Assembly (NCBI GenBank): GCA_048571215.1
Contig: CP182352.1
Coordinates: 2,048,001-2,112,000, forward strand
Direction of reading: 5' to 3'
Source of the DNA: Halarcobacter sp.
GTDB taxonomy: Bacteria > Campylobacterota > Campylobacteria > Campylobacterales > Arcobacteraceae
Length of the DNA stretch: 64,000 nucleotides
The translations under genes and the position numbers were made by a program. Below the pieces are notes generated by a model. The model was not told the DNA's origin and ran no database searches. It worked only from the letters and a program-made list of their open reading frames with translations. Numbering within the stretch: the stretch's first letter is position 1; each line of letters begins with the position of its first letter. Shown piece by piece: positions 24,714 through 55,380 of this stretch.

Positions 24714-24748
24714 TTTAGTATTCAGTACTCAGAGTTCAGTGTTCAGAA
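24714..24748. repeat. Degenerate 7-bp tandem array (YTCAGTR family), downstream arm of the four-helix-bundle remnant
   Basis: + strand: TTTAGTA TTCAGTA CTCAGAG TTCAGTG TTCAGAA. Confidence 0.85.
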
Positions 24749-24898
24749 CTATGAGTTTATTTTTTGTTGTAAACCAACAATCATTTTTAGTATCTCTTCA
24801 ATCTCTTTTTTCCAAGATAAACCTATTTGTTTCTCTATATATGATATTTCTATACCTATATAGATTTGTGTTATGAGTTCAGCAGAAGATTCTTTGCC
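24749..24898 (-). pseudogene. C-terminal remnant of a four-helix-bundle (23S rRNA IVS / Avd-like) protein gene
   Basis: Manual translation: GKESSAELITQIYIGIEISYIEKQIGLSWKKEIEEILKMIVGLQQKINS*. This matches the family C-terminal pattern (KG)SxxELxTQxYIxxEIGYI...E..EI.KML. No start codon, and the N-terminal part is missing. Confidence 0.8.
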
Positions 24899-24932
24899 TC
24901 TGAATTCTGATTACTAAACTCTGAACACTATT
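24898..24932. repeat. Degenerate 7-bp tandem array, inverted relative to 24714-24748
   Basis: + strand: CTCTGAA TTCTGAT TACTAAA CTCTGAA CACTATT (reverse-complement type of YTCAGTR/TTCAGAG). Confidence 0.85.
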
Positions 24933-24944
24933 TTTAGTCTTTGA

Positions 24945-25886
24945 CTAAAAATACCCCTCTTGTTTTTTCTTCTCCATTGATGCTTCACCATCACTATCTA
25001 TAAGTCTTCCTTGTCTCTCACTAGTTGTACAAATCAACATCTCTTGAATAATCTCAGGGAGTGTTGTTGCTTCACTATTTACTGCACCTGTTAAGGGATA
25101 ACAACCTAGTGTTCTAAATCTAACTTTCTCTTTTTTTGCAGTTTTTCGCAATTCTTCAGGCATTCTATCATCATCAACCATGATTTTTGTGCCCATATAT
25201 TCTACTACTTCACGCTCTTTTGAGAAGTATAAATCAGGAATAGAAATCTCTTCTATATAGATATATTGCCAGATATCAAGTTCTGTCCAGTTTGATATTG
25301 GAAAAACTCTAATAGATTCACCTTTTGTGTGTCTTCCATTATATATATTCCATAACTCTGGTCTTTGGTTTTTTGGATCCCATCTATGGTTTTCATCTCT
25401 AAAAGAGTAGATTCTCTCCTTTGCTCTTGATTTCTCTTCATCCCTTCTTGCTCCACCAAATACTGCATCAAATTTTTGCATATCTAGCATTTGTTTTAGA
25501 CCTTCAGTTTTCATAATATCAGTATGAACAGCACTTCCATGAGTAAAAGGGGAGATATTCATCTCTAAACCTTTTGGATTAGAATAAACAATAAGTTCCA
25601 TTCCAACTTCTTTTGCACGTCTATCTCTAAACTCTATCATCTCTTTAAACTTCCAAGTTGTATCAACATGTACTAATGGAAGGGGTGGAGGAGCTGGATA
25701 AAAGGCTTTTTGTAATATGTGTAGCATTACAGAAGAATCTTTTCCTACTGAGTACAGCATTGCTGGGTTTTGAAACTCTGCTATTACTTCTCTCATTATA
25801 TGTATTGATTCTGCTTCTAGCTGTTTTAAATGGGTAAGTCGATTAGCACTTAATCTTAAGTGCTCAGTGCTCAGTTTTTTTTTCAA
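24945..25886 (-). CDS. cysD: Sulfate adenylyltransferase subunit 2
   Basis: [46 protein letters not shown] and KKQEGYF. TTG start. Confidence 0.97.
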
Positions 25887-25898
25887 ATATATTCCTTT

Positions 25899-26717
25899 TT
25901 ACTTTACTATAAACCAGGGGTTTAAAAGATTAGCTTTGTTATAAACAACAGCTTGCTCTAATATTGAATTTTCAATATTGAATTTTGAATGAAACTGATA
26001 AGCCAGTTTACCACTTTCTCTTACTATTGCATCTGCTGCTGCTGTATCCCACTCCATAGTAGGAGCAAGTCTTGGGTAAATATCAGCTTCACCAGTTGCT
26101 ACCATGCAAAGTTTAAGGCTAGAGCCTTTTGAAACTAGTATTAAGTGTTCAGTTTTTAGTGCTAAGTTATCTATGAAGTTTTGTGTTTCTATAGAAAGGT
26201 GTGATTTACTTGCTACTACTGAAATATTTTCTTTTATATCATTATTTGTATAAATTGGAAGCTTTTCTTTACTGAGAACTGAATACTGAGTACTGATAAC
26301 TTCTTTAAATGCCCCATCACCTTTTTTTGCATAATACATATCACCTAAAGCTGGTGCATATACTACACCTAAAATAGGAGTGTTTTTATATATCAAGGCA
26401 ATATTTACTGTAAACTCATCATTTTTTTTAATAAACTCTTTTGTGCCATCTATTGGATCTATACAAAAGTAGTATTCCCAGTCTTTTCTTATACTATATT
26501 CTGTTTGCTTATTCTCTTCACTCATCAACGGAATCTCTGGATACAATCTATTTAACTCAAAACATATTAATTGGTTTGATTTAGTGTCAGCTTCAGTTAA
26601 AGGTGATTTATCATCCTTATACTCAACACTAAAATCTCTTTTATAAATATCCATTATCAAACTACCAGCTTTTAAAGCAATCTTTTTTATATCTTCAATA
26701 TTTATCTTCTCTATCAA
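25899..26717 (-). CDS. cysQ: 3'(2'),5'-bisphosphate nucleotidase CysQ
   Basis: SPLTEAD, IDPIDGTKEF, VASKSH, GSSLK and PTMEWDTAA. Confidence 0.95.
   Translation of the reverse strand: MIEKINIEDIKKIALKAGSLIMDIYKRDFSVEYKDDKSPLTEADTKSNQLICFELNRLYPEIPLMSEENKQTEYSIRKDWEYYFCIDPIDGTKEFIKKNDEFTVNIALIYKNTPILGVVYAPALGDMYYAKKGDGAFKEVISTQYSVLSKEKLPIYTNNDIKENISVVASKSHLSIETQNFIDNLALKTEHLILVSKGSSLKLCMVATGEADIYPRLAPTMEWDTAAADAIVRESGKLAYQFHSKFNIENSILEQAVVYNKANLLNPWFIVK
26134..26297. repeat. Pair of inverted 7-bp arrays inside cysQ (26134-26168 and 26270-26297)
   Basis: ACTAGTA TTAAGTG TTCAGTT TTTAGTG CTAAGTT, and TACTGAG AACTGAA TACTGAG TACTGAT. Confidence 0.75.
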
Positions 26718-26757
26718 CTTATCCCTTTCATATTTTCAAATAACTAATAACTATTTA

Positions 26758-27381
26758 CTAAATAGCATAATCGTTTTCATCACCTTGTATATATCCATAT
26801 TTTATCAAATGAGTCACTACCAATTCTGCACATTGTTGAATTGTATGCTTGTTGGTTTCTATATGTATTTGTGGGGCTTCGGGAGCTTCATAAGGAGAAT
26901 CTATCCCTGTGAAATTTTTGATAGCACCTTCTCTTGCTTTTTTATATAATCCTTTAGGATCTCTACTTTCACAAATTTCAAGTGGAGTATCAATAAATAC
27001 TTCAATAAATTCATCATATCTAACTAAGCTTCTAGCAATTTGTCTATCTGATTTAAAAGGACTAATAAAAGCTGTCAAAGTTATTAGACCACTATCAACA
27101 AAAAGTTTACTAACCTCTCCAATTCTTCTAATATTTTCTATTCTATCAATTTCTGAAAAACCCAAATCCTTATTTAAACCATGCCTTACATTATCCCCAT
27201 CAAGAAGATATGTTTTAATACCTCTTTTGAAAAGCTCAACTTCAACAGCATTTGCAATAGTAGATTTTCCTGAGCCACTTAATCCTGTAAACCATAAAAT
27301 GCATGGTTTTTGATTAAGTAAACTTAGCCTTTTTTCTTTTGTTATATGTTGTTCATGCCAAACTATATTTTCATCTTTCAA
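26758..27381 (-). CDS. cysC: Adenylyl-sulfate kinase
   Basis: [39 protein letters not shown] and FTGIDSPYE. Confidence 0.97.
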
Positions 27382-27580
27382 TACTTTCCTTTAATAGTAA
27401 ATTATTCAAAACTTAACCAATAATTCCATTATGATAATTCGTGCAATTATAATAAAAACAAGCTTATAAACATAATTTATACCTATCATAAATAACTTTT
27501 TATAAAATTTATTAGTAATAATTATACAAGTTAAGTATTATTTTTATATAATAATGTCAATTTATCAAGGTAAGGATATC

Positions 27581-28507
27581 ATGTTAATTTTAGGTAAAAA
27601 ATACAAGTTTACAAAATTTGAAAAGCAAAGACTAAAGAAAAGAAATATAAAAACAACAGTTATACGTTATATAGATAGAGATTCAAAAGATGTATTAAAA
27701 GAGATAAAAGAAACTATTGAAAAAAAAGATTGTAAAACTATTGTACTAAATACTAAAATAGCAATTGATGATGAAATCATAAAATATCTTACAAACTTAC
27801 AATTCAAAGAAAATGTAGCCATGATTAGTATAGAAAAATTTATGGAAAAATATCTTCAAAAATGTTATATTCCAGATGATCATATGAATTTAAGCTACCT
27901 AGAAAATATAAAACCTTTTAATAGTTTTGAGTATATTCAAAAAAGAATTATAGACTATATGGGAGCTATTATACTACTTCTTATATCTTGGCCTGTACTT
28001 TTATATGCAAGAAACAAAATCAAAAAACAATCCCCTGGAACTAGTATGTTCAAACAAAAAAGAGTAGGACTAAATAACAAAGAATTTAAGTGTATAAAAT
28101 TTAGGTCTATGAGACTAGATGCAGAAAAAGATGGTGCACAATTTGCTTCTACAAATGACCCAAGAATTTTTGCTTGGGGTGAAACTATGAGAAAGACAAG
28201 AATAGATGAAATACCCCAAATATTAAATGTCCTAAAAGGTGAGATGCATTTCATAGGACCAAGACCTGAAAGAAGATACTGGATAGAGCAGTTTGAAAAA
28301 GAAATACCATACTACAATGAAAGACATCTTGTAAGACCTGGAATCACTGGATGGGCACAAGTGATGTATCCATATGGAGCAAATGCAGAAGATGCAAAAC
28401 AAAAGCTTATGTATGATTTATATTATATAAAATACTGGAATATTTGGTTGGAAATAAAAATAGTATGGAAGACTATTTTGATTGTTTTAAGAAAAAGAGG
28501 AATTTAA
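27581..28507 (+). CDS. Priming (polyprenyl-phosphate) sugar transferase, WcaJ/WbaP family
   Basis: KRIIDY, QKRVG, KFRSM, RIDEIPQ, GPRPE, RPGITGWAQV and YDLYYIK. AAGGA RBS before the ATG at 27581. Confidence 0.93.
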   Translation: MLILGKKYKFTKFEKQRLKKRNIKTTVIRYIDRDSKDVLKEIKETIEKKDCKTIVLNTKIAIDDEIIKYLTNLQFKENVAMISIEKFMEKYLQKCYIPDDHMNLSYLENIKPFNSFEYIQKRIIDYMGAIILLLISWPVLLYARNKIKKQSPGTSMFKQKRVGLNNKEFKCIKFRSMRLDAEKDGAQFASTNDPRIFAWGETMRKTRIDEIPQILNVLKGEMHFIGPRPERRYWIEQFEKEIPYYNERHLVRPGITGWAQVMYPYGANAEDAKQKLMYDLYYIKYWNIWLEIKIVWKTILIVLRKRGI

Positions 28508-29265
28508 TCTTTTTTCTTTCTTCTAACAAGTTGTAATACCTTTGATAATGGTTTTAATAAAAACATTAAAGGGTTTATATACAATTCATTTACGTTCCAT
28601 GCTTTATAGCTTTCAAAGTTTGCTTTTAAAATATTAGATAAATTTCGATTACTCTCTCCTCCTACTCTCATTTTTACAAATGTTTTATTAATATAAGAAG
28701 ATTTGAATTTGTAGCGTTCCAAAAAACGTAACATAATCTCATAATCAGCAGAAATCTTAAAGTCTAAATTAAAGACTCCATACTTATCATAACATTCTCT
28801 TTTTATAAAAAAAGTAGGATGTGCTGGGTGCCAACCTTTTTGAAAAAGACCATACTCGAACTCTTTTGACTTCCAATATCTAACTATTTTATCTGTGTTA
28901 TTAGCATCTACATATTCGAGGTCTCCATAAAGACAATCTATATCTTTATTTTTAAACTCTTTACTTACTATTTCTAAAATATCATTAGATTTATAAAAAT
29001 CATCACTATTTAATATCCCTACTATATCTCCAGTAGCTAGTCTTATACCTTTATTCATAGCATCATAAAGACCTTTATCTTTTTCACTAATAAATTTATC
29101 TATTTTATCTCCATAACTTTTTATTATATTTACTGTACCATCTGTACTTTCACCATCAATAATTATATATTCAATATTATCATATGTTTGTGATAAGACA
29201 GATTCTATACACTCATTTATTGTTCTTTTATTATTCCAAACAACAGTTATAATTGAAACTTTCAA
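28504..29265 (-). CDS. Glycosyltransferase family 2 (WcaE-like)
   Basis: IIDGESTDGT, SEKDKGLYDAMNKG, LNSDD, HPTFF and ADYE. Confidence 0.92.
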   Translation of the reverse strand: MKVSIITVVWNNKRTINECIESVLSQTYDNIEYIIIDGESTDGTVNIIKSYGDKIDKFISEKDKGLYDAMNKGIRLATGDIVGILNSDDFYKSNDILEIVSKEFKNKDIDCLYGDLEYVDANNTDKIVRYWKSKEFEYGLFQKGWHPAHPTFFIKRECYDKYGVFNLDFKISADYEIMLRFLERYKFKSSYINKTFVKMRVGGESNRNLSNILKANFESYKAWNVNELYINPLMFLLKPLSKVLQLVRRKKKD

Positions 29266-29267
29266 AT

Positions 29268-30413
29268 CTAATTCTCCAAAATTTTTTGATATAACTCTAA
29301 TTGTAAATTTGTCACATATTCATTTTCATATTTTTTTGACATAATAATAGCATTCTTAGATAAAAACTCATAATTTTGATAATCAAATGAATATTCAACA
29401 ATTTTTTTTAATTCATTTTTATTAACTATAAATCCATTCTCTTCATGTTTTATTAAGTCATTTCTTGTACCAATATTAAATCCTATCACTGGTGTACCTA
29501 ATGTCATAGCTTCAATAATTGTAAGTCCAAAAGTTTCATACATTAATGATGATTGAATAAGATACTTTGAACAAGATATAACTTCTAATGTTTCCTTTCT
29601 AGAAAGTTTCCCTTTAAATATAATATTATTTTTTTTATACTTTTCTTTTAATTCATTTTCCAAATCTCCACCACCAACAATATTCAAAATATATTTATTA
29701 TCTAATAATAACCATGTATCTAATAGATTATAAATACCTTTTGATTCTTCCAATCTACCAACATATACATAATTTTCTTTTTTCATACTTTTTGATTTGT
29801 TAATAAAAAGACTATTTGGTTTAAAAAGTATTTTTGATTCATCAATACCTAGTTCCATTATTTTGTATTTTTGAAATTTTGTTAAAACAAAAAAATAATC
29901 TATATTATCAAATATTTTTATTACTTTATAAAACCAAAAAACCATTTGTGTTAAAAAACTCTGAGAAAAAGACTTTCTAAAACATTTATTTCTTATTCCA
30001 GCAAACGATATTTTATTGTTTATACAATCTTCACAAATTCCAACTAAATCTCTATAAAATATCCCTGAAATGCACCACATCCTATAGTTATGTAATGTAT
30101 GAATAACCTTTGCTCCTCCATCCTTTGCTCCCTTAAACACACTTGGTGTTAACAATGGATAAAAATTATGAACATGCACTATATCAATATTATGTTCTTT
30201 TACAATTTTTTTTATATTTTTATAATGATTCCAAGAAAACCAAATATCAAATAATAACTTAAACTTATCAATTTTATCATTAGAAACTTCGTATGAAAAT
30301 ATGTTTTCTTCATTAAAATGATTTTTTAATGATTTTAATTCATTTTTATAAACTATATCTTCTCCACCAATATTTTGAGATTGATAAAAATTATGAACAA
30401 TTAAGATTTTCAA
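29268..30413 (-). CDS. Glycosyltransferase family 4
   Basis: GGED, VHVHN, HTLHNYR, YVGRLEESKG and ETFGLTIIEAMTLGTPVI. Confidence 0.92.
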   Translation of the reverse strand: MKILIVHNFYQSQNIGGEDIVYKNELKSLKNHFNEENIFSYEVSNDKIDKFKLLFDIWFSWNHYKNIKKIVKEHNIDIVHVHNFYPLLTPSVFKGAKDGGAKVIHTLHNYRMWCISGIFYRDLVGICEDCINNKISFAGIRNKCFRKSFSQSFLTQMVFWFYKVIKIFDNIDYFFVLTKFQKYKIMELGIDESKILFKPNSLFINKSKSMKKENYVYVGRLEESKGIYNLLDTWLLLDNKYILNIVGGGDLENELKEKYKKNNIIFKGKLSRKETLEVISCSKYLIQSSLMYETFGLTIIEAMTLGTPVIGFNIGTRNDLIKHEENGFIVNKNELKKIVEYSFDYQNYEFLSKNAIIMSKKYENEYVTNLQLELYQKILEN

Positions 30414-31588: not shown

Positions 31589-31598
31589 ACAATTAATT

Positions 31599-38017: not shown

Positions 38018-38690
38018 TATAATACTTTCTTAATAATTTTTCCACATAGTTCTCTTTACATATATTCAATTTTTCTATAATATTATTAATCTTTTCAACA
38101 TCAATATTAAAATCACCTGGCATAGTTATTAAATTGTATTTAGGTTCTATATTCAATATAATACTAATTTGCTCTACAAGTGTTTTTACTTTAATATTTG
38201 AAGGATAAGCAATATTTATAATACTATTATTATATGATTCATCAACAATAAGATTTTTAACTATATTCTTCATATCACTTACATCTATCAAATTTCTCTC
38301 TATATCATATAAATCAAAAGAATCTTTATTTTTAATTTTATTATATAAATATCCAACCAATTGATTTTTATTATTAAATCCTACAATTTGAGGTACTCTA
38401 AAAATATTATAATTATTTGATTTTTTTATAATAATATTTTCCATTTTTAATTTGTGCTGGCAATATTTTGAACTTTCAAAATAATTATCATATATAGAAC
38501 AAGTGCTAAAGTAAATAAATTTAATATTTTTATTCTCTTCTAATTTTTTTCTCAATAGATTTTCTTCTCTCAGAAATTCATCAACTCGCTCTTCTTTCGA
38601 GTTTGAAACACCCGATGCAAATATTAAAATATTTTTTGAATTACTATATTCTAAAAATTCTTTTGCAATTAAACCATTACCTACTATCAT
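38010..38690 (-). CDS. fcd: dTDP-4-dehydro-6-deoxyglucose reductase, Fcd-like (dTDP-D-fucose synthase)
   Basis: [12 protein letters not shown]...IFASGVSNS...YFSTCSIYD...YCQHKLKME...RVPQIVG...RNLID resembles Aggregatibacter Fcd (recalled, not searched). Follows rmlA-rmlB directly, with no rmlC/rmlD. Confidence 0.7.
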   Translation of the reverse strand: MIVGNGLIAKEFLEYSNSKNILIFASGVSNSKEERVDEFLREENLLRKKLEENKNIKFIYFSTCSIYDNYFESSKYCQHKLKMENIIIKKSNNYNIFRVPQIVGFNNKNQLVGYLYNKIKNKDSFDLYDIERNLIDVSDMKNIVKNLIVDESYNNSIINIAYPSNIKVKTLVEQISIILNIEPKYNLITMPGDFNIDVEKINNIIEKLNICKENYVEKLLRKYYSE

Positions 38691-39747
38691 AACTAACCTT
38701 ATATTTTCCCAAATACCACACAATAGTCTTAACTATGCCAGTATCAAAGTTCTCATCTGCTTTCCATCCAAGTTCATTTTCCAATTTACTTGCATCTATT
38801 GCATATCTTCTATCATGTCCTGCTCTATCTTCTACAAATGTTATTAACTCTTTGTAGGATTGTAATTGGTTATTTGTTATTTGTATATTAGTAGAGATTG
38901 GTTTAACTTCATCCAATATTTCACAAATTCTGTTTACTATTTGCAGATTTGTTCTTTCATTTCTTCCACCTATATTATAGGTTTGCCCTTTTAATCCCTT
39001 ATGGAAAACTAAGTCTATACCTTTACAATGATCTAGTACATACAACCAATCTCTTATATTTTTTCCATCTCCATATATTGGTATAGGATTTCCTTGTAGA
39101 GCATTTCTTATAATTGTTGGTATTAATTTCTCATCATGTTGTTTTGGTCCATAATTATTTGAGCAGTTTGTGATTACTGCGTTTAGTCCAAAGGTTTCTA
39201 CATAAGATCTTACTATCATATCACTTGATGCTTTTGAAGCAGAGTATGGAGAATTTGGTGCATATGGTGTAGACTCATGGAAAAGATCATTTGGGTCTTC
39301 ACTTAAGGTTCCATACACTTCATCTGTTGAGATATGATGAAATCTACAATCTTGGTACTTTTTTTTATATTCAAAGGGTTTATTCATCCAATATTTATAT
39401 GCCACATCTACTAAGGTATATGTTCCATTTACATTTGTTTCTATAAATACTCCTGGATTTTTTATACTATTATCCACATGTGATTCTGCTGCGAAGTGAA
39501 TTACACCTCTTATATCATATTCAGAAAAAATAAATTCAACTAATTCTCTATTACAGATATCACCTTTTATAAATTTATATCTCGGATGATTTTCAACTTC
39601 TTTTAGGTTTTCTAAATCACCTGCGTATGTTAGAAGATCTAGGTTTATTATATTACAATCTTGATATTTTTCTAAAAAATATGGCACGAAGTTACTTCCT
39701 ATAAAGCCTGCGCATCCTGTTACTAATATTGTTTTATTATTAAACAT
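38677..39747 (-). CDS. rfbB: dTDP-glucose 4,6-dehydratase
   Basis: [35 protein letters not shown] and [12 protein letters not shown]. Confidence 0.97.
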
Positions 39748-40615
39748 CTATCTCTTTCACCAAGTTATACAAATATTGACCATACCCATTTTTAGATAAG
39801 GGTTTTGCTATTTCTAATATTTTCTCTTTTGTTATCCATTTATTATTATATGCAATCTCTTCTAAACAAGCTATTTTATACCCTTGTCTATGCTCTATTG
39901 TTTGTACAAATTGTCCTGCTTCTAACAGGCTATCATGAGTTCCTGTATCAAGCCATGCAAATCCACGACCTAGAAGTTCAACTTTCAAGTTCCCTTTTTT
40001 TAGATATGCTTCATTTATTGAAGTGATTTCAAATTCACCTCGTTCACTTAAGTTTACATTTTTTGCTATATTTACTACCTCATTATCATAAAAATACAAA
40101 CCAGTAACTGCAAAATTTGATTTTGGTTTTTTTGGTTTTTCTTCAATACTTATTGCATTTTTATCTTTATCAAACTCTACTACTCCAAATCTATCTGGAT
40201 CTTTTACTTGATATCCAAATACTACAGCTCCCTCTTTTATTAAAGCAGCATTTTTTACCATTAGACTCAATCCACTTCCATAGAAAATATTATCTCCTAA
40301 AATCAAACAAACACTATCATCTCCTATAAAATCTTCACCTAAGATAAATGCTTGGGCTAATCCATCTGGGCTTGGTTGTATTTTATATTCTAGATTAATA
40401 CCCCATTGACTACCATCGCCTAAAAGTTCTTTAAACTTATGGTTATCTTCTGGAGTGGTTATTATCAAGATGTTTCTAATCCCTGCTAACATTAAAACTG
40501 ATAAGGGATAATATATCATTGGTTTATCATATATTGGCAAAAGCTGTTTACTTGATGACTTTGTTATGGGATAAAGTCTTGTTCCAGAACCTCCTGCTAG
40601 TACTATACCTTTCAT
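39740..40615 (-). CDS. rfbA: Glucose-1-phosphate thymidylyltransferase
   Basis: [38 protein letters not shown] and [11 protein letters not shown]. Confidence 0.97.
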
Positions 40616-40716
40616 TTAAATATACCTTTAACAAAGTTTTTTATTCTCCAATTAGCAAAAGTTATAAACTCTAGAGGATTAATTGTTCTCATGAATCTTC
40701 TTTATTAATATTAAGA

Positions 40717-41784
40717 TTATCTATCATTGCTTAGATACCAGTTATATATTTTTTCTATACCTTGTTGTAATTCTATTGTATGTTTCCACCCTAAGCTATT
40801 TAATTTGCTTACATCTGTAAGCTTTTTCATAGTCCCATCTGGTTTATTAGTATTAAATACAAGTTCACCTTTAAATCCAATAATATCTTTTATAAGAGTT
40901 GCCAACTCTTTTATTGATATATCTACACCTGTTCCAATATTTATATGAGTATTTCTAATCTCTTTTTCATTTTCACCAAATGTATCTTTAAAATCTCTAT
41001 TTTCTAAAAGAAATACACATGCATCTGCCATATCTTCTGAGTAAAGAAACTCTCTTCTTGGTTTCCCTGAACCCCAGATCTCAACTGAATCTTTATTTAC
41101 ACCAAATTTATTTAGATATTCTAAGGCTTCATCCAAAGAAGATAGATTTAAATCTTTTAATACTTCTTCTATTTTTTCTTCATTTAAAAGTTTAGCAAGA
41201 TATATTTTTCGTATAAGTGCTGGTAGTACATGTGACTTTTCCAAATCAAAGTTATCATTTGGTCCATATAGGTTTGTTGGCATTACTGATATAAAGTTTG
41301 TATTATATTGCAAGTTATATGATTCACACATTTTTATACCTGCTATTTTTGCTATTGCGTATGGTTCATTTGTATATTCTAGTGGACTTGTTAATAAACA
41401 ATCTTCACTCATTGGTTGCGGTGCTTCTTTTGGGTATATACAAGTACTTCCTAAAAATAGCAATTTTTTTACTTTATATTTATAGGCATTATGGATTACA
41501 TTATTTTGAATGGCTAAGTTCTCATATATAAAATCAGCTCTATAGGTATTATTTGCAATTATTCCACCAACTTTTGCTGCTGCTAGTATTACATATTCTG
41601 GTTTTTCTAGTTTAAAGAACTCATCTACTTCATTTTGATTTGTTAGATTTAATTCCTTATGAGTTCTATATACTAAATTTGTATAACCCTTTGATTGTAA
41701 ATTTTTTACAATTGCAGAACCTACTAATCCTCTATGACCAGCTACATATATTTTACTATTTTTATTCATAATCATTTTACTCAA
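40717..41784 (-). CDS. fcl: GDP-L-fucose synthase
   Basis: [39 protein letters not shown] and SHVLPALI. The true start may be 41775 or 41769. Confidence 0.95.
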
Positions 41785-42922
41785 AATAACTCATAATTTT
41801 ATATCCACCATCTTTTAGATAAGTGTCTTTTTTCATTAGTTTTAAATCACTTGCCATCATATCATTTACTAAGTCTTGAAGTTTATACTCTCTATTCCAT
41901 CCTAATTTAGTTTCAGCTTTTGTAGGGTCTCCTAGTAGCAAGTCTACTTCTGTTGGTCTAAAGTACCTTGAGTCTACTTCTACTACAACAGTGTTCAGTA
42001 CTAAGTGTTCAATGCTCAGCCCTAATGATTTTACTTTCTCTTCATCTATACTATCAATAATACCTTTTTCATCTACACCTTTTCCTTCAAATCTTAGCTT
42101 TATCCCTACGTAGGCAAAAGCGAATTTTACGAAGTCTCTTACAGTTGTTGTTTGTCCTGTTGCTATTACCCAATCTTCTGGTTCATCTGCTTGAAGAATC
42201 ATCCACATCATCTTTACATAATCTTTTGCATGTCCCCAGTCTCTTTTTGCATCTAAGTTTCCAAGGTATAATTTATCTTGAAGGTTTAGTGCTATTTTAG
42301 AAGCTGCTCTTGTAATTTTTCTTGTAACAAAAGTTTCACCTCTTACTGGGCTTTCATGGTTAAAAAGGATTCCATTACAAGCGAACATACCATATGCTTC
42401 TCTATAATTTACTGTTATCCAGTATGCGTACATTTTAGCAACTGCATATGGACTTCTTGGGTAAAAAGGAGTTGTTTCACTTTGAGGTGTTTCTTGTACT
42501 TTTCCATATAATTCAGAGGTACTTGCTTGATATATTTTTGTTTTATTAGCAAGTCCTAATAATTTTACTGCTTCAAGGATTCTAAGTGTTCCTGTTCCAT
42601 CTGCGTTTGCTACATATTCTGGTGTCTCAAAAGAAACTGCTACATGAGACATTGCAGCTAAATTATAGATTTCATCTGGTTGTGTCTCTTGAATAATTCT
42701 TGTTAGGTTCATAGAATCTGTCATATCACCATAATGAAGTATTAGATTTCTATTTTCTACATGTGGATCTTGGTAAAGGTGATCTATTCTATCTGTATTA
42801 AACAAAGAACTTCTTCTTTTTATACCATGTACTATATATCCTTTTTTTAGCAAAAACTCTGCTAAATAGCTTCCATCTTGTCCTGTTATCCCTGTTATTA
42901 AGGCTACTTTTTGTTCTGCCAT
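41777..42922 (-). CDS. gmd: GDP-mannose 4,6-dehydratase
   Basis: [32 protein letters not shown] and [17 protein letters not shown]. Confidence 0.98.
41987..42021. repeat. 7-bp array (YTCAGTR family) in frame inside gmd
   Basis: AACAGTG TTCAGTA CTAAGTG TTCAATG CTCAGCC, encoding [12 protein letters not shown]. Confidence 0.75.
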
Positions 42923-42923
42923 T

Positions 42924-43403
42924 TTATTTGTTTTCTCCTGTTATTAATTCTAAATTTTTAAAGTAATCTTTTACATAAGTATGAACTTCATTTGATTTTA
43001 AGAGTTCATCTATTGTAAACCAATTATATTCACTATGTTGCTCTTTGGGAAGATTTATTAACTCATCTTTTAATTCTAATAAATATCCATGATTTGCATA
43101 GTGCGTTGAGATATTTTCAAATATACTATCTTCATAAAAGTGTTCAAATACTCCTAAAAATTTTACTTTATTAATATCTATTATTATACCTAATTCATTT
43201 TTGCTGATACGTTTGATAGCATCTTTAAATGATTCATTTTTTCTTACAATTCCACCTGTAGTAAACCAAAAATCTTTTGCTGGTTTATTTACTCGTTTAC
43301 CTAATAGAACTTTATCTTTATACATTGTAATCAAATCAATAGATATAAGTGGTGTATGTTCTACGACTACTTTAAATTGTTCTTTTGGTATAAGTTTACT
43401 CAT
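42924..43403 (-). CDS. gmm: GDP-mannose mannosyl hydrolase (Nudix)
   Basis: [19 protein letters not shown], modified Nudix box GGIVRKNE...ELG, FEHFY, THY and QH. Confidence 0.9.
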
Positions 43404-44848
43404 AAAATAATCTTTTTTATACTAGATAAAACTTGCTTCACTAAACTATCAGAAAGCTCTTGACTATTGGTTTCTACATAACATCTTAATTCTGGAGCAT
43501 TACCTGATGGTCTTAAGTGTATGATATTATCATTATCAAGTGTAATTCTTAATCCATCTATTTGATTTATATCTACTACTTTTTCTTCTATTTTAAACTG
43601 TTTTAATAAAGATTCAGGGGCTGAAGCACCAATTTCAATAAGCTTCATACTATTAACTCTTGGAAACTCTTGTATTCTATCACTTGAAGTAAATCTTTGT
43701 GGTAAGTTTTCTACTAGTTTTGATAAGGTTGTTTGCTCTTTAACTGTATTGCTAGCTAATACAATAAAAGGTAGTAGTGCATCTCTTGTTGGTAAAGCAT
43801 CTAGTATATTTCCATTTTGATTTAAAGTTGAACCTAAAAGAAAACCACCATTTGCTTCAAATCCTGCAAAGGATTTATATGCCTGGGACAAATCACCAGT
43901 TCCAGAAGTTTTTAACTTTTCAAAAGCTTCTATCACATAAGGTGATCCTATTTTAGTTCTAAAAGTTTTTTTAAAAAGATTTGATTTTTCAATAGCTGTA
44001 TTACAACTAACTGGAACTGCTAATGCTTCTATATCTAGAAGATTAGAAGTTAAAAGGCCTACTATATCACCTCTTAGCCAATTACCATTTTCATCTGATA
44101 TTAAAGGTCTATCACCGTCTCCATCTGTTGAGAATATCATATCAAAGCTATATTCTTTTACCCAGTCTTTTGCTCTTTTTTTATCTATATTAGCAACTGC
44201 TTCAGTATCTATTGGAACAAAGTCATCAGATCTACCTAATGAGGTTACATGTGCACCTAAAGATTTAAAAAGATTCGCATATAAATCTCTTCCTGCACTT
44301 GAGTGTTCATAGATACCAATTTTAAGATTGGACAAACATTTATCTCCAAAAAAGTTTGCATATCTATTCATATAGTTTTGTGAAGCTTTATTATTAATTT
44401 TAGGTAGATTACTTTTTACAAGTTTTATTTGCTTTTGATTATTTACAATATCTTTTTCATCAACTTTTAATATTTCTCCAAGGGGGCTATAAAACTTAAT
44501 ACCATTTCTATCATATGGAATATGACTACCTGTTATCATAATAGATGGATTACTTTCACTCATAGCTTGTAATGCAAGAGCAGGTGTTGGTAGTACACCA
44601 TAAAAGTCTACTCCAAATTCACTGTCTTCAATAACACCACATACAAAAGCAGATATATCAGGACTACTTTGACGATTATCCATAGCGACAGATACTTTTT
44701 TAAAATTAAATCTACTTTTCATAGCATCTAGAAAAGATAATGTAAAAGCGGTACAAACTTCTTGTGTAAAATCACTTACTAATCCTCTTGCACCGCTAGT
44801 ACCAAATTTTATACCACTTTGTTCAATAATTTCTTTTATATTTGACAT
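43400..44848 (-). CDS. manB: Phosphomannomutase
   Basis: FGTSGARG, ITGSHIP (phospho-Ser), TDGDGDRP, GFEANGG and RPSGNAPELR. Confidence 0.95.
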   Translation of the reverse strand: MSNIKEIIEQSGIKFGTSGARGLVSDFTQEVCTAFTLSFLDAMKSRFNFKKVSVAMDNRQSSPDISAFVCGVIEDSEFGVDFYGVLPTPALALQAMSESNPSIMITGSHIPYDRNGIKFYSPLGEILKVDEKDIVNNQKQIKLVKSNLPKINNKASQNYMNRYANFFGDKCLSNLKIGIYEHSSAGRDLYANLFKSLGAHVTSLGRSDDFVPIDTEAVANIDKKRAKDWVKEYSFDMIFSTDGDGDRPLISDENGNWLRGDIVGLLTSNLLDIEALAVPVSCNTAIEKSNLFKKTFRTKIGSPYVIEAFEKLKTSGTGDLSQAYKSFAGFEANGGFLLGSTLNQNGNILDALPTRDALLPFIVLASNTVKEQTTLSKLVENLPQRFTSSDRIQEFPRVNSMKLIEIGASAPESLLKQFKIEEKVVDINQIDGLRITLDNDNIIHLRPSGNAPELRCYVETNSQELSDSLVKQVLSSIKKIIL

Positions 44849-44851
44849 ATA

Positions 44852-46231
44852 TTAATTTCTCTTAAAGTCATCATCAAGTCTAACAATATCATCTTCACCT
44901 GTATATTCTCCAACTTGTGCTTCTATTAATACTACTGGTATTTTACCCTCATTTGATAGTCTATGAACTTCTCCCATTTTTATATAAGTACTTTCATTTG
45001 GTCTTACTGTAAAGGTTTTTTCTCCTACTGTTACTGTTGCTGTTCCACTTACTACTATCCAGTGTTCATTTCTATGGAAATGTTTTTGCAAAGACAATCT
45101 TGAGTTTGGTTTTACTTCTATTCTTTTTATTTTATAACCAGGGCTATCTTCTAGTACAGTATATGTTCCCCATGGTCTATGACCTGTTAAATGTATATTA
45201 TGTAGTTCAGAGTTTGATTCTTTTAATTTTTCTACTACTTTTTTTACTTTTTGACTAGAACCTTTTTTTGATACTAAAAGGGCATCTCCTGTATCTACTA
45301 CTATTAAATCTTCTACATCTATTGTAGCTATTGTTCTTTCATCACCATAAACTAAATTATTTGATGAGTCTATTGAGATATGATTAGGGTTTTGTGTATT
45401 ATTGTTTTCATCTTTTGGAAGTTCATCATATAGTGAATCAAAGCTTCCCAAGTCTGACCAATTTATATCAGATGGAATTACTTTTACTTTATTTGATTTT
45501 TCCATTACTGCATAATCAATTGAATCCTCTGGAATATTTATCATATCATCATGGGTAATTCTTAGTTGATTATTTGCTATCTTTTGTTTATTTTCAAAAG
45601 CTATTTTAGAAGTTTCATAGATATTTGAAGAGTATTTTTTTAATTCATCTAAAAATACCCCTGCTTTAAAGCAAAACATTCCAGAGTTCCAGTAATAACT
45701 TTTCTCTTCTAAATATCTTTTTGCAGTATCTAAATCTGGTTTTTCATGGAAAGCTTTTACATCATCTTTATTTTCACTCTCAATATATCCATATCCAATT
45801 TCTGCATATGTTGGAGTTATACCAAAGGTTACTAAATAATTTTCTTGAGCTAATTGTTTTGCTTGTTTTACAACTTTTTCATATTCTATTTCATTTTTTA
45901 TTAGATGATCACTTGGGGTAACTAAAACTAATTCTTCAGGGTCTAGGGCTAAACAAGCCAAAGCTATTGCTGGTGCTGTATTTCTTCCTACTGGTTCTAG
46001 AAGACACAAATTATCATTTTTATTTAATTCAGCTAATTGATCTACTGCTAGAAAATATTGTTCTATATTTGAAACAATTAATTGCTTATCACAAGTTATT
46101 GAATTTCTTTGAACTGTTAATTGGAATAATGATTTATTATCAAACAATTTTACAAACTGTTTTGGCATAAGGCTTCTACTTATTGGCCACAATCTTGTTC
46201 CACTTCCTCCGCATAGGATTAGGTTTGTCAT
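44852..46231 (-). CDS. manC: Mannose-1-phosphate guanylyltransferase / mannose-6-phosphate isomerase
   Basis: LCGGSGTRLWPISR, EPVGRNTAPAI, SIDYAVME, WSDLGS and a C-terminal cupin (RPWG...LQKHFHRNEHW). Confidence 0.96.
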   Translation of the reverse strand: MTNLILCGGSGTRLWPISRSLMPKQFVKLFDNKSLFQLTVQRNSITCDKQLIVSNIEQYFLAVDQLAELNKNDNLCLLEPVGRNTAPAIALACLALDPEELVLVTPSDHLIKNEIEYEKVVKQAKQLAQENYLVTFGITPTYAEIGYGYIESENKDDVKAFHEKPDLDTAKRYLEEKSYYWNSGMFCFKAGVFLDELKKYSSNIYETSKIAFENKQKIANNQLRITHDDMINIPEDSIDYAVMEKSNKVKVIPSDINWSDLGSFDSLYDELPKDENNNTQNPNHISIDSSNNLVYGDERTIATIDVEDLIVVDTGDALLVSKKGSSQKVKKVVEKLKESNSELHNIHLTGHRPWGTYTVLEDSPGYKIKRIEVKPNSRLSLQKHFHRNEHWIVVSGTATVTVGEKTFTVRPNESTYIKMGEVHRLSNEGKIPVVLIEAQVGEYTGEDDIVRLDDDFKRN

Positions 46232-48042: not shown

Positions 48043-48103
48043 ACTCAATTCCCTTTAGTGTTTTTATTTTGTAATATTATACCTAATTTTTTTTTAAATC
48101 TAA

Positions 48104-50224: not shown

Positions 50225-51146
50225 CTTTATCCTGTCTTATAAATTCATAAAAGAAAACTAAAAATATAGCTAAAATAAAAGATGTTACAAATGACACAAC
50301 TAAAATTAGTCCTCTTTTTGGTTTGGTTTTCTCTTTTATATTTGCCACTCTACTATCTGTAATCTTACTTACAAAGTAGTAATCATTTGCCAAAGAAAAA
50401 ACCTTTTTTTGCATAAGTGAAGATAAAGACTTACTTAACTGCTCTTTTAGTGATACATCATAGGTATTTGCTAATTCTTTGTTATAGTAGATAATTTGTT
50501 TATCTATCTCTTTCATATCTTGCTGTTTTATTTTTTCTATACTTTCATTTAGATAGATGTCTACTAACTGCTTTGCTAAAACTCTATCATTTAGCTCAGC
50601 ACTTAAGGTTATAAGTGAACTTTTTTTATCACTACTTACTGATATTATCTTTTTGAGTTTTAAATATGTATTGAAAATAGTTTGTTCATCACTTTTATCT
50701 TCCAACTCTTTTGCATCTGGTTTAAAAAAATCAAAACCAAAAGCATAGACTAAATTTTTTTGATTTGCTAACTTTTTTGCCAAATCATATTTTTTTATAA
50801 CATAAGAATTAAATTCATAATCTTTTATCATAGTTTGTATCATTACAAAAGGATCTTTTACACTACCTCCACCACCTAATGATATACCAGCAAATGAAGC
50901 TAATGTAGACAATCCACCACCAACTTTATTATTATCACTGCTTTGAGGAGCTAAGATAACTTCTGATTTATACGAATTAGGTATAGACAATACATACCAT
51001 AAAGTACAAAAAGAAACAAGAAACACAAAAATAACAATCTTATACTTGTACTTCAAAATAGTTAGAAACAACTCTTTTAAATCTATCTCATCCTCTTGAA
51101 TTTGATTATGATTTATAGTTTCATCATTTTTTATTAATTCAGACAT
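50208..51146 (-). CDS. wzz: Polysaccharide chain-length determinant Wzz
   Basis: EDEIDLKEL, TM1, LSTLASFAGISLG, and KPKRGLILVV before TM2. Confidence 0.9.
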   Translation of the reverse strand: MSELIKNDETINHNQIQEDEIDLKELFLTILKYKYKIVIFVFLVSFCTLWYVLSIPNSYKSEVILAPQSSDNNKVGGGLSTLASFAGISLGGGGSVKDPFVMIQTMIKDYEFNSYVIKKYDLAKKLANQKNLVYAFGFDFFKPDAKELEDKSDEQTIFNTYLKLKKIISVSSDKKSSLITLSAELNDRVLAKQLVDIYLNESIEKIKQQDMKEIDKQIIYYNKELANTYDVSLKEQLSKSLSSLMQKKVFSLANDYYFVSKITDSRVANIKEKTKPKRGLILVVSFVTSFILAIFLVFFYEFIRQDKDEAKA

Positions 51147-53776
51147 TATAAACTTCCTAGAGTCTTAAGTGATGCTGCTGTTACTGCTATTTGGTATACT
51201 ATTTGCGTAACATCTTTTGCAAAGGCAACATCTGACATAGTATCAAGTTTTACAGGTACTACTATAGTATCTCCTTTGAAGATATCAACACTGTTTTGCC
51301 AAAAGAAGTTTTTCTCGTATTTTACAGCTTCACCATTTGCTTTTACCACATAGATAAACTCATCATCAGCACCAGTTTTTAGTCCACCAGCTTTTGATAT
51401 ATAATCATCTATATCAAGTTTATCATCATATACAAAGGTATTTTGATTTAGTACTTCTCCAACTACTGATACTGTATCATTTATAGACGGTACACTCAAT
51501 ACATCTCCATCTTTTAAGATAATATCATAATTGCTATCTTGGAACCTATTCAAATCATAATAAAGATTTAAAGATACTCTACCTATAGGTCTATTTGCTG
51601 CTGCTTGTTTTTCTAAAGCATTTAAAGTTGCAAGCATTTTTGCTTTATCACCACTATTTTCACCTACTTTATCGGCAGTTAGATTTTCTGAAAACATTTG
51701 CATCTTTAATCTATCTATAGACTCATCAAGTCTCTTTTGCTGCAACTCTTGAACCTCAACTCTTGTAAATACTGCTCCTTCTATAAAAGCATTTGGCAAG
51801 AAACCACCAGCTCTTTGAAGTACACTTGATAGTTTTTCACCATCAACTATAGGGTATTTGCCAGGGAATCTAACTAAACCTTTTAGCTCCACATACATCT
51901 TATCATTCCAATTTACAATTGGGAAAATAGTAATCTCATCATCAGGATGTACTTCAAAATCCATAGCAACTGGATTGTCTAGATTCATAGATAATATTTC
52001 TCTTGTTCTTTCATTTGAATGAACTGTGTACCGTACAATTTCAAACTTTGATTTTAAAGCTTTTTTAGTTAAACCACCAGCTAAGTCTATCATGTCTTTG
52101 ATTTTTACATTATTCGTTATATAATAACTACCAGGGATAAATACTTCACCTTTTATTGTAGCTTTTTCTATTTCATTAACTTTAGAGTATTCAAAAAATG
52201 TTATTTCATCAAATGGTTTTAAACTAAAGCTATTCATCTCTTTTTTTTCAACTAAAATTGTCTGTTTTTTATTATTTTGAATTCTATTAATTTGAATTTT
52301 AGATTTATCTACTCTTATAGAAACTCTACCTTGATCATTTTCTTTTTCAGTTTTAAACTTTACAAAATCAAATAAATCTTTTGCTTTCATTCCATCATAA
52401 AAATCATATTTTCTTTTTATATTATCTACTATCTCACCATTTACATAAAGATAAGGTTTATCTTGCAATTCTTCTTTTTTATAAATAATTATTTTATCTC
52501 TATTATTCAAAGAAATATCTTCTTTACCATCTAATACTTTTTTTAAATTAAAACTTTTTATATTATTATCATTTATTACAACTGCATACTTATAGTTTGT
52601 GTCAAGTTTAAAATAACCTTTTTTACCAAATTTTTTTAATTCGTCTTGTAAAAGAGTTGAAAGTTTTTTATCTTTTGGTATCTCTTTTTCTCCTATTGCA
52701 ACTACATTACCTTTGATTTCAACAAACTTTGCATTTAAATCACTTGTACTATATACATAAATTTCATCCCCATTTTTAGGTTTCATTTTATAAAGTTCAT
52801 TACTTGTAACTGTATAAACCTTTACACTATTATTTTCAAATCTTTTAAGTTTGATAGCATTTTTATTTGCGCTTGCTTTAAAGCCTGAAGCAAAATCTAT
52901 CAAATCACTAAATCTTTCACTATTTTTTAATTCAAATATTGCATTGAAGTTTACACCACCTGTTAGTTTTATCTCTTTATTTATAGGTTTTACTAAAATC
53001 ACATCACCATTTTGAAGTATCTTATCACTATTTGTATCACCATATCTAACTAAGGAATACAAATCAAAAGTGCTTATTGTTTTACCACCTCGTTTTAGTA
53101 GTATATTTCTATATGAACCATTTTCTAGTATGCCACCACTTGAGATAAGTGCATCTTTTATAGTAGAAAATGAAGATAGATTTATAATCCCTGGGTTTGA
53201 CACAAGACCAGAAACAGTAACTTGGATAGAGGTAAACTCTGTCATATCTACTAAAATATTTGTACTATTTGGATAAGCTTTTTTTGTTTCTGCAAGAATC
53301 AACTCTTTTGTATCAGAAAAATTCAGTCCAATAACTTTTTTTTCTCCAACTTGAGGAAGTGTTATATTACCATTTTTATCTACTTGTAATACAAAGTTTT
53401 CATTTGTAGCCCCATATATAGTTAGGGTCATTTTATCCCCAAAATTTAGTTTATAGTTTGAGGGAGTAGGGATAGAGTAAGGGTTTATTTTATTTTTATT
53501 ATTAAAAAAATGTGAAGCGTATCTTTTTATATCTTTTGAGGTTTTATCTTTGTTATTTGCTAGTTTGAAAAGATTGTTAGCTTTATCATCTATATTATTT
53601 TCAACTTTTTGTTCAGCTGGGACTTTTTCTACTTTTTGTTCTGTTTTAGATATCTGTTCATTTATCTGACTTTCACTTATACCAGCAGCTTTTGCCATAT
53701 CCAACTGTTCTTGACTTAAACTTACTGAAAACAGTAAGGTTAGAGAGATTAATAATAAAGAGACTACTCTTATCAT
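51146..53776 (-). CDS. Large SLBB-repeat polysaccharide export protein (Wza/KpsD/OtnA-like)
   Basis: Signal peptide, Poly_export domain (YKLNFGD...GNITLPQVG), several SLBB repeats (GEVFIPG, GLVRFPG, GEVLNQ) and a C-terminal TQIVYQIAVTAA. Confidence 0.9.
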   Translation of the reverse strand: MIRVVSLLLISLTLLFSVSLSQEQLDMAKAAGISESQINEQISKTEQKVEKVPAEQKVENNIDDKANNLFKLANNKDKTSKDIKRYASHFFNNKNKINPYSIPTPSNYKLNFGDKMTLTIYGATNENFVLQVDKNGNITLPQVGEKKVIGLNFSDTKELILAETKKAYPNSTNILVDMTEFTSIQVTVSGLVSNPGIINLSSFSTIKDALISSGGILENGSYRNILLKRGGKTISTFDLYSLVRYGDTNSDKILQNGDVILVKPINKEIKLTGGVNFNAIFELKNSERFSDLIDFASGFKASANKNAIKLKRFENNSVKVYTVTSNELYKMKPKNGDEIYVYSTSDLNAKFVEIKGNVVAIGEKEIPKDKKLSTLLQDELKKFGKKGYFKLDTNYKYAVVINDNNIKSFNLKKVLDGKEDISLNNRDKIIIYKKEELQDKPYLYVNGEIVDNIKRKYDFYDGMKAKDLFDFVKFKTEKENDQGRVSIRVDKSKIQINRIQNNKKQTILVEKKEMNSFSLKPFDEITFFEYSKVNEIEKATIKGEVFIPGSYYITNNVKIKDMIDLAGGLTKKALKSKFEIVRYTVHSNERTREILSMNLDNPVAMDFEVHPDDEITIFPIVNWNDKMYVELKGLVRFPGKYPIVDGEKLSSVLQRAGGFLPNAFIEGAVFTRVEVQELQQKRLDESIDRLKMQMFSENLTADKVGENSGDKAKMLATLNALEKQAAANRPIGRVSLNLYYDLNRFQDSNYDIILKDGDVLSVPSINDTVSVVGEVLNQNTFVYDDKLDIDDYISKAGGLKTGADDEFIYVVKANGEAVKYEKNFFWQNSVDIFKGDTIVVPVKLDTMSDVAFAKDVTQIVYQIAVTAASLKTLGSL

Positions 53777-53846
53777 ATAAACACCTTTTAATAGTTTTTA
53801 AAATGCTAAGATTTTATCTAAATAATAATAAATATTTTATAAGTTA

Positions 53847-55286
53847 CTACAAAATATCAGGAATATCTATATTTGCCTCTTTATTTGTATCTGCTACAGT
53901 TTCAAAAACAACCTCAATAGGTGCTTCATTTGAGTTTTCTTTATCCACAAATCTAGTAAATTGTTTTTGGAAATCCAATCTTACAGTACCTATTGGTCCA
54001 TTTCTTTGTTTTCCTATGATTATTTCTGCTTCTTCTACAGGTTTGTTTATAAAAGTTGATTTATACTCTTCACCTTTATCTTTTGCTTCTTTTTCTTTTC
54101 TTGCTTCATCTCTTTCTTTATATACATCATCTCTATATACAAACATAATGATATCCGCATCTTGTTCTATAGCACCTGATTCTCTAAGGTCACTTAGCAT
54201 TGGTCTTTTATCTGGTCTATTTTCAAGTCCTCTGTTTAACTGTGATAGTGCAATAATTGGGATTTTCATCTCCCTTGCAAGCATTTTAAGTCCCCTAGAG
54301 ATATCAGAAACTTCTTGGTGTCTATCTTTGTTTCCTGTACCTTGCATAAGTTGTAAATAATCAATTACTACTAGTGAGATTTTATTATCTTCATTTTGAG
54401 CTAGTTTTCTAACCCTTGCCCTTAGTTGGTTGATATTTACACTTCCCCCATCATCAACAAAAAGTTTCTTTTGGTTTAAATCTTCAAAAGCTCTTGTAAG
54501 ATTTGACCATTGGTTATCATCCATATCACCTTTTCTAAGGTTTTGTAATGGTATAGAGGTTTTTGCAGCAAGCATTCTTAGCATAAGTTGCTCTGCTGGC
54601 ATCTCTAGTGAGAAAAATATAACACCCTTACCTGCTTCAACATTTTTTAATGCCATATTTAAAACTAAAGCTGTTTTACCCATGGCTGGTCTAGCTGCAA
54701 TGATTACTAAATCCCCAGCATTAAAACCTGTTGTTCTTTTATCTAGGTCATAAAATCCTGTGGTTTCCCCAATTAGGTGTTTATTACCTAGCTTTTTCAT
54801 TTTTTCAATGTATGCTAAGGTATCTCCTGTTACTACTTCCATATCTTTTAGTTCAGAAGTTGCACTATCTGTTGAGATTTTATAAAGTTCACCTTGAACT
54901 ACATCTAAGGCATCATTTGCACTTACCTCTTCTTCTAAAGAGACTTTTTTTATTGTTGTTGCAAGTGTTGCTAACTCTCTTTTTACTGAGCCATCTTTTA
55001 TCTCTCTTACATATGCTAAAGTATTAGTAATAGGATTAGCTGAAAGAATCTCAAGTAAGATTGAATCATCAACCTCTTTTTCATTTACTCTTTTTTTAAT
55101 AAACTCTTCATCAATAGGCATATCATCATTATGAAGTTTAACCATAACTTCAAAAATCTTTTGATGTGCTGGAAGATAAAAATCCTTAGGTTTTAAAACT
55201 CCTAAAACATCTTCTAACTCTTCTGGGTTGAAAAGAATAGAACTTAAAACTGCTCTTTCTATATTTATACTATATACGCTATCCAT
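53847..55286 (-). CDS. dnaB: Replicative DNA helicase
   Basis: AARPAMGKT, FFSLEM, IDYLQLM, LSQLNR, DLRESGAIEQDAD and KQRNGP. Confidence 0.98.
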   Translation of the reverse strand: MDSVYSINIERAVLSSILFNPEELEDVLGVLKPKDFYLPAHQKIFEVMVKLHNDDMPIDEEFIKKRVNEKEVDDSILLEILSANPITNTLAYVREIKDGSVKRELATLATTIKKVSLEEEVSANDALDVVQGELYKISTDSATSELKDMEVVTGDTLAYIEKMKKLGNKHLIGETTGFYDLDKRTTGFNAGDLVIIAARPAMGKTALVLNMALKNVEAGKGVIFFSLEMPAEQLMLRMLAAKTSIPLQNLRKGDMDDNQWSNLTRAFEDLNQKKLFVDDGGSVNINQLRARVRKLAQNEDNKISLVVIDYLQLMQGTGNKDRHQEVSDISRGLKMLAREMKIPIIALSQLNRGLENRPDKRPMLSDLRESGAIEQDADIIMFVYRDDVYKERDEARKEKEAKDKGEEYKSTFINKPVEEAEIIIGKQRNGPIGTVRLDFQKQFTRFVDKENSNEAPIEVVFETVADTNKEANIDIPDIL

Positions 55287-55293
55287 GATTTTG

Positions 55294-55328
55294 AATGAAA
55301 AATGAAAAGTGAAAAATGAAAAATGATA
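55294..55328. repeat. 7-bp tandem array (AATGAAA) in the dnaB leader
   Basis: AATGAAA AATGAAA AGTGAAA AATGAAA AATGATA, followed by the complementary TTCATTTTCAAATTCACT. Confidence 0.9.
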
Positions 55329-55380
55329 ACTTCATTTTCAAATTCACTAGACACAAAACACCTCTTCTCCTTTAAACTTT

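Follow-up and report, generated by a model that had tools for sequence, protein, structure and literature searches.

The protein encoded by the cassette described here has a four-helix fold related to that of Avd, known from diversity-generating retroelements (DGRs). The closest described system shares the protein family itself. ORF-bearing intervening sequences (IVS) of 23S rRNA, exemplified by helix 45 of Coxiella burnetii, encode S23p proteins of the PF05635 family, and there, as in our cassette, the ORF occupies the loop of a terminal stem (PMC4990558, in the portion of its text available). The same portion places tandem heptamers just upstream of the S23p start codon and has RNase III cutting the stem. 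The cassette differs in lying at mRNA operon junctions, where it often overlaps the next start codon, in being under purifying selection, and in having gene-less and in-frame derivatives of its arms; the same phylum also has an armed copy within 23S rRNA (L155, see below). The cassette is, in its workings, like an ORF-bearing IVS moved into mRNA, and by location it is not a member of that class. Avd is described as a pentameric, basic, RNA-binding barrel in the accessible part of PMC6182149.

Several families of heptamer repeats have a comparable layout. As far as the available text of each source goes, the GGGAATC repeats of Xanthomonas (PMC4692102), the TAACTGA repeats of Beggiatoaceae (PMC4679880) and the class I and II repeats of the Nostoc trnL intron P6b (PMC4476775) likewise come in about four units, in inverted pairs and at operon junctions, and by inspection their motifs fit the nnnARTk core defined below. 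In the portions consulted, P6b motifs are reported to swap wholesale while the stem is retained (PMC4476775), and a stop-rich orientation is reported to keep repeats out of reading frames (PMC4679880). The text available for PMC4692102 and PMC4679880 makes no mention of a helix-bundle or intervening-sequence gene, and complementary in-frame pairs within enzyme cores, which we report below, are not seen in these accounts of the Xanthomonas, Beggiatoaceae and Nostoc repeats. Rickettsia palindromic and Correia elements are likewise small repeats fused in frame into unrelated enzymes, and RNase III cuts at mRNA inverted repeats of elements of this type (PMC10969869, in part). They are MITE-like single-piece units of about 150 bp in that account, whereas the arrays considered here are heptamer runs of 20-40 bp in many families, some of them in two pieces around native sequence. 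Terminal inverted repeats are a feature shared with MITEs and insertion sequences. A search of the openly accessible literature found no description of the cassette class; the nearest mention was of heptamers in the Coxiella IVS.

The stretch of DNA analysed, hereafter the window, comprises 64,000 nucleotides (C1:2048001-2112000) of a complete Halarcobacter genome (G000; 3.61 Mb, 28.5% G+C). Its genes run along the minus strand in the order ispG, dnaB, export and chain-length genes, manC, gmd, rmlB, transferases and sulfotransferases, and then cysC, cysQ, cysD and cysN. Names are based on Pfam for 21 proteins, and those of the remaining genes are putative. All features below lie on the minus strand unless stated otherwise. 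Between cysD (24945-25886) and cysN, the large subunit gene of sulfate adenylyltransferase (23238-24692), a cassette remnant (24693-24944) interrupts a junction that is empty and tightly coupled, stop to start, in relatives. Inverted arrays bracketing a four-helix-bundle remnant had been predicted at this place, and the anatomy bears this out. The 5' arm consists of TCAG-type heptamers with nnnARTk grammar (24898-24929), the 3' arm is the reverse complement of the same family (24714-24748; predicted fold z -4.6), and the enclosed PF05635/TIGR02436 gene (24749-24895) lacks its start and 5' two thirds, so that only the C-terminal third matches PF05635 (E 1.6e-5, under the curated cut-off). The remnant is 95% identical to an intact gene of another genome (L126, G009) over 43 columns. 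A perfect 11-bp hairpin (24929-24953, no strand assigned) spans the cysD stop codon, and its right arm follows, as a mirror image, whichever stop-codon variant a relative has. cysN itself contains a weak in-frame 5'-type array at 23334-23351.

TIGR02436/PF05635 matches number two in the genome, the window remnant and an intact paralogue of 117 residues (E 4e-34) that fills the paralogous cysD-cysN junction of a second cys operon, its cassette lying at G000:3266929-3267405. The arms of the paralogue are built from a different heptamer, which is absent from the window locus, and its 3' arm makes the first codons of CysN. The closest solved relatives of the intact protein, 2GSC (E 1e-14) and 2RLD, have five chains each. 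Filled and empty sites, whose definition had been proposed as a check, could be told apart: the counterpart of the window's junction is joined directly (24692-24946) in public contigs from DNA runs X3 and X15 and RNA run X5, at 85% likeness, and with eight cassettes queried the genome proved empty at five junctions that relatives have filled. No direct target-site duplication was seen when filled and empty junctions were compared, and no mobilising enzyme came to light. Loci L001 and L002 gave no Rfam match and lie outside 23S rRNA genes.

The gene is patchily distributed, occurring in 38 of 151 genomes of the family and 18 of 201 of the phylum, and it is missing from most of the campylobacter- and helicobacter-sized groups sampled. 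Two weak TIGR02436 matches adjoin reverse transcriptases. Our survey of arms kept 70 intact genes, 69 of them with flanks, from the subset of listed places that was fetched; partial, stop-containing and start-less matches were dropped. The predicted co-localisation of period-7 arrays with these genes is borne out in 62 of the 69, whose flanks exceed the 95th percentile of controls, and inverted complementary arms exceed theirs in 55. Where both arms score well (56 genes), the two cognate arms agree at 5.8 of 7 positions, compared with 4.0 after shuffling. All arm families phase onto an nnnARTk core on the 5' arm (score 2.75; the highest null score in 20 permutations was 2.04), and substitutions in the arms are of mixed types. 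On a tree of 122 columns with many weak forks, arm family tracks protein clade while one family recurs at unrelated junctions, and the cysD-cysN junction hosts at least five sublineages with differing arms. Nine of ten pairs of cassette genes have dN/dS of 0.04-0.16, indicating purifying selection. By eye, the gene overlaps the next start codon in 31 of 70 cases, and consequently the 3' arm forms the first codons of the next gene. One armed gene, and only one, lies within 23S (LSU) rRNA (L155 in G174). Stop-codon hairpins accompany 11 of 66 cassettes, compared with 6% of 558 control junctions; since most come from two junction lineages, we do not treat them as general. Solo arrays of one arm family, among the matches listed, were present in 11 of 13 genomes with the cognate clade, in 5 of 25 with another clade and in 21 of 113 without the gene (26 of 138 non-cognate genomes in all), with status judged by eye and kin not independent.

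That arrays and protein form one system, as originally predicted, is supported by the period-7 and inverted arms, the shared core, the tracking of clade by family, the 23S copy and the solo arrays, and an orphan protein family is thereby tied to unexplained heptamer repeats of bacteria. Our preferred explanation, which we hold with about equal measures of belief and doubt, is that the window contains a decayed copy of a cassette, one gene with inverted heptamer arms, which is gained and lost at operon junctions. On this view the cassette is likely a selfish relative, without a transposase, of the ORF-bearing 23S rRNA IVS, and solo and in-frame arrays are likely its by-products. Together, the remnant, its mirror-image arms and the enzyme-borne repeats likely mark a little-studied selfish element that rewrites host genes. 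An IVS-like mobile cassette was the first option of the original prediction, and the unit of gene plus arms stands on the filled and empty junctions, the several lineages per junction and the 23S rRNA copy; the accompanying idea that arms are left behind as scars does not, as in-frame pairs enclose native coding sequence.

Under this preferred explanation, the arms would pair in RNA, and RNase III would cut the resulting stem in the manner of the Coxiella IVS, splitting or punctuating the transcript; a gene for RNase III is present in the genome. If such stems are sites of RNase III or of the protein, operons for sulfated surface polysaccharide would be punctuated by them. The shared ARU core, repeated every 7 nt, would be the binding site of the pentamer, which may help the unit or its arms to spread. 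Permissive loops, signal-like N-termini and junctions would be the places where arrays settle, and there another family could overwrite them through recombination between shared-core arrays, and polymerase template switching across the stem could re-match the arms. The stop-rich 5'-type arms would stay mostly untranslated, and the stop-free 3'-type arms would be tolerated in frame. Short perfect hairpins beside arrays, stop-codon hairpins that mirror the host and a fold-back contig of run X5 hint at template switching. Damage to the host gene, to be expected if RNase III cut within cysQ or across a start codon, counts against the explanation.

The arrays themselves are real and concentrated. 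At least ten had been predicted between 24.7 and 55.4 kb, and all 11 of those listed were found in place. At 16 or more matches in 21, the window holds nine clusters of period 7 (three of them low-complexity A/T tracts), compared with 0-3 for periods 5, 6, 8-11 and 14. A genome-wide log-odds scan, of the kind proposed as a check, returned 98 period-7 segments, seven of them at 24-56 kb against about 0.9 expected by length, and no segment there for periods 4, 5, 8 and 13; the arrays at 24898, 26134, 41987 and 45552, the last of which is weak, fall under its threshold. With the shared core built into the scan, the genome gave 29 matches, and the region six (five distinct arrays) against 0.26 expected. 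A codon-shuffled control had likewise been proposed, and in this grammar-aware scan 10 coding matches stood against 3, 4 and 3 after three separate shuffles of synonymous codons, and 28 against 18-22 when the threshold was loosest. A phase-variable simple sequence repeat is rejected as an identity for the arrays, which are degenerate and hold frame and near-constant length at orthologous sites. Comparisons with public contigs gave no 7-base change among the indels listed.

Two statements about placement had to be given up. The arrays do not extend across the polysaccharide locus: seven of the 11 lie in a 2.1-kb cys cluster and three in rmlB, gmd and manC, with none of the listed arrays in the transferase, flippase and export genes of the window. 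Nor is housekeeping DNA free of them, as ispG and dnaB have the array at 55294 between them and the genome has similar arrays at further housekeeping loci. The arrays are therefore enriched in the region and not confined to polysaccharide genes. The ispG-dnaB array is a gene-less AAAAATG-family run with a short hairpin (55288-55345), which could be read as a frame of 18 codons that overlaps the start of dnaB. A solo 5'-type array (26737-26764) begins at the cysC stop, upstream of the cysQ ribosome-binding site. For this array and those in RmlB, Gmd and ManC, no convincing partner arm was found within 3 kb.

In-frame arrays in enzymes, which the original prediction had also noted, were found in CysD, CysQ, RmlB, Gmd and ManC. 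Near its N-terminus, CysD carries an in-frame 3'-type array with a 9-bp hairpin (25845-25876) and is 9 residues longer there than its paralogue. CysQ (gene at 25899-26717) carries three. Site 1, a 5'-type array (26270-26301), adds 10 residues and lengthens a confident beta hairpin of the predicted structure. Site 2, a complementary 3'-type array (26134-26167) some 100 nt of native coding sequence downstream, adds 2 residues and lies across a helix end and a strand in the predicted structure. Site 3, a TTGAAT-family array with a 9-bp hairpin (25960-25991), adds 9 residues in a predicted loop of lower confidence. Insertions at up to three such fixed sites occur in 6 of 26 aligned orthologues, and the cassette gene is present in 5 of the 6 genomes concerned against 8 of 31 with a short or distant form of CysQ (p 0.014). 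Sites 1 and 2 thus form 5'-type and 3'-type arms around native sequence, and four families are represented. Each gene's own pair is the best match (permutation p 0.007 over six genes, or 0.042, the minimum possible, over four families), with the pair of L042 degenerate among the six and the window's own pair weak, folding no better than shuffles (z -0.66). A tree of CysQ fits single and multiple origins alike (p-AU 0.316).

ManC repeats the pattern. The window's manC has one weak in-frame 3'-type array (45552-45595; 4 residues longer than most orthologues), while the arm pair is found in the second manC of the genome. Across 50 sequences, with two skipped, both sites are occupied in eight, site 1 alone in three and site 2 alone in none (co-variation p 0.015), and two of the three with site 1 only are unrelated palindromes. 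The most informative addition of this analysis is that in two enzymes, CysQ and ManC, native coding sequence lies between in-frame arms that match. RmlB has a solo 3'-type array (38859-38889) in a loop of 18 residues, compared with 8-10 in empty orthologues. From 30 loci we parsed 25 such loops, of which seven hold arrays of four families at 18-20 residues (six in cassette genomes), four hold unrelated palindromes and 14 are short (two in cassette genomes). Gmd has a solo 3'-type array of the TCAG family (41987-42022), and 17 parsed orthologues divide into eight with clear arrays (seven in cassette genomes), six equally long without clear repeats and three short. Loops of the same length without periodicity had been named in advance as evidence against the association; they were found in those six of the 17 Gmd orthologues, at 27 residues. 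Judged by eye, the in-frame family equals the arm family of the genome's own cassette in G137, G128, G101, G023, G072 and largely G009, and differs from it in G073, G104, G070, G091 and most of G000.

Because the in-frame pairs enclose native coding sequence and switch family together, they are not scars of excision. Their co-variation points instead to joint editing of the two flanks of a host coding segment, which would be a route to new protein loops. That array lengths stay near-constant from family to family suggests a single insertion whose sequence was later replaced where it stood. A bolder proposal, which we put forward tentatively and think rather unlikely to be right, is that the PF05635 pentamer serves a system not described before, free of transposase and reverse transcriptase, that writes or converts heptamer arrays at new sites, in inverted pairs that match and some of which flank native coding segments. 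If true, such a system would lengthen the loops of enzymes and would explain why bacteria have too many 7-base repeats, an excess long noted and so far unexplained. Exact test substrates are available in an intact gene flanked by its own arms, in junctions that are empty, and in enzyme orthologues of which some have matched in-frame arms and others do not.

TRAP and Hfq read short RNA repeats, and the second option of the original prediction was TRAP-like control of surface-polysaccharide transcripts. In this reading the pentamer recognises some three to five ARU-core heptamers, whether the mRNA is nascent or mature, and adjusts how transcripts of long operons are processed, elongated or coupled in translation; arrays in frame would be retained because they are binding sites. 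Like the sites of TRAP- or Hfq-like rings, the nnnARTk arrays combine an invariant short core with variable spacers at a fixed period of 7, and a core common to all families is the part of this option that stands, together with purifying selection on the protein. The five-chained structures of the nearest solved relatives, the overlap with the next start codon (31 of 70, by eye) and the constancy of array position and length while the family changes agree with it, as do, in the parts of these papers available, the binding of a specific RNA segment by Avd (PMC6182149) and a translational role proposed for TAACTGA repeats (PMC4679880). Against it stands the patchy occurrence of the gene (38 of 151 and 18 of 201 genomes). 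The genome has at least five array families and a single intact cassette gene, whose own family is off the locus, it has 13 matches of one family with the cognate clade absent, and, among the matches listed, 26 of 138 genomes hold arrays without the cognate gene. The listed arrays also avoid the transferase and export genes (0 of 11). We consequently regard host regulation as doubtful.

A neutral origin of the arrays, in which slippage makes them, quasi-palindrome correction matches them and the four-helix gene merely hitch-hikes without acting on them, appears improbable. Arrays do occur in 21 of 113 genomes that have no cassette gene, among the matches listed, and the RmlB loop holds unrelated palindromes in 4 of 25 orthologues. 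A bias towards G-U wobble on the mRNA strand was likewise absent (108 against 120, p 0.47, a crude count from alignments that include flank matches), so that selection on an RNA duplex is not supported. In the available portions of the sources, PMC4692102 cites the hypothesis that heptamers arise by polymerase slippage, and the Coxiella ORF is argued to be probably unexpressed in PMC4990558. Neutral drive, however, leaves aside the arms that are near-universal around the gene family and whose family tracks protein clade, the strong purifying selection on a gene with no fixed host locus, and the single fixed polarity and core of all families.

Still less probable is that the enclosed segment is precisely taken out under the guidance of the arms, from mRNA by splicing or from DNA by excision or inversion, and that the flanking genes are recoupled in this way. 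The anatomy is intron-like and the joined cysD-cysN form was found in an RNA run, but the same form is present in DNA runs with two other letters, and it is therefore the empty allele of relatives. No joint on an intact cassette was found in the contigs of four runs at 95% likeness. Removal would delete the start of the next gene in overlap cases and essential-looking CysQ or ManC sequence between in-frame pairs, and with each of the 70 intact genes turned to its own strand, the flanking frames found were co-oriented. A single contig from RNA run X5 is exact to 24924-25190 and then continues, in a by-eye comparison, as the reverse complement of 24868-24885, a fold-back of the 5' arm. It could represent a 51-nt inversion; as a lone contig it may reflect an artefact of the library or variation between strains. 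DNA run X1 contains the reference arrangement in one 349-nt contig.

A DGR like that of Avd, or other retro-mobility, is rejected, as the genome has no reverse transcriptase (no RVT_1 match at E 1e-8) and over 151 genomes reverse transcriptases are not enriched with the cassette (16 of 38 against 38 of 113, p 0.43); nor was a template or variable repeat noticed.

Finally, the 2.1-kb cys cluster contains three perfect hairpins of at least 9 bp, compared with 0.6 expected in a post hoc count.

Two sets of genes in the window are found in near-identical duplicate elsewhere on the same contig (C1) of the source genome, G000: cysDN, at window positions 23238-25886 and at G000:C1:3265499-3268314, and the gmd/manC/rmlB genes, at window positions 38677-46231 and at G000:C1:685507-693374. 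The arrays constitute the main difference between the copies of both sets. A weak in-frame array was also located near the C-terminus of CysN (window 23334-23351), and this same stretch is the point at which a related strain in the public RNA sequencing run X5 diverges, with an array-like end. In other genomes, the RmlB loop that accepts heptamer arrays holds REP-like palindromes in frame (L095, L097, L100 and L106), as does the ManC loop that accepts such arrays (L203 and L207).

The window harbors two APS kinases in one cluster (22509-23234 and 26758-27381), one of which carries an N-terminal DUF2061 domain fusion. Sulfotransferases adjoin this cluster, which is likely a sulfated polysaccharide locus.

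Arrays of the downstream-arm type belonging to the AAAAATG family, the family of the window array between ispG and dnaB, were present at G000:C1:831381, 2857488 and 346990. All are read in frame, their products being hydrophobic, signal-peptide-like N-termini or a short frame that bridges two genes. A heptamer hairpin lacking the cassette gene, followed by a short G+C palindrome, lies between grpE-like and dnaK-like genes (G000:C1:3528732-3528810). Outside the window, the trailer end of a CRISPR array of about 30 spacers (G000:C1:1585479-1587680) exhibits a gene-less heptamer hairpin (x3) in place of a repeat end and spacer. A second CRISPR-like repeat array, recognized from repeating translations, is found near the intact cassette (G000:C1:3255873-3258001).

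The arms of a few cassettes from relatives (L008, L015, L143 and L149) seemingly have a period of 8 or 9 rather than 7. One weak TIGR02436 match, L156, is devoid of heptamer arms, and two others (G114:C88 and G063:C37) adjoin reverse transcriptases and probably represent true DGR Avd genes.
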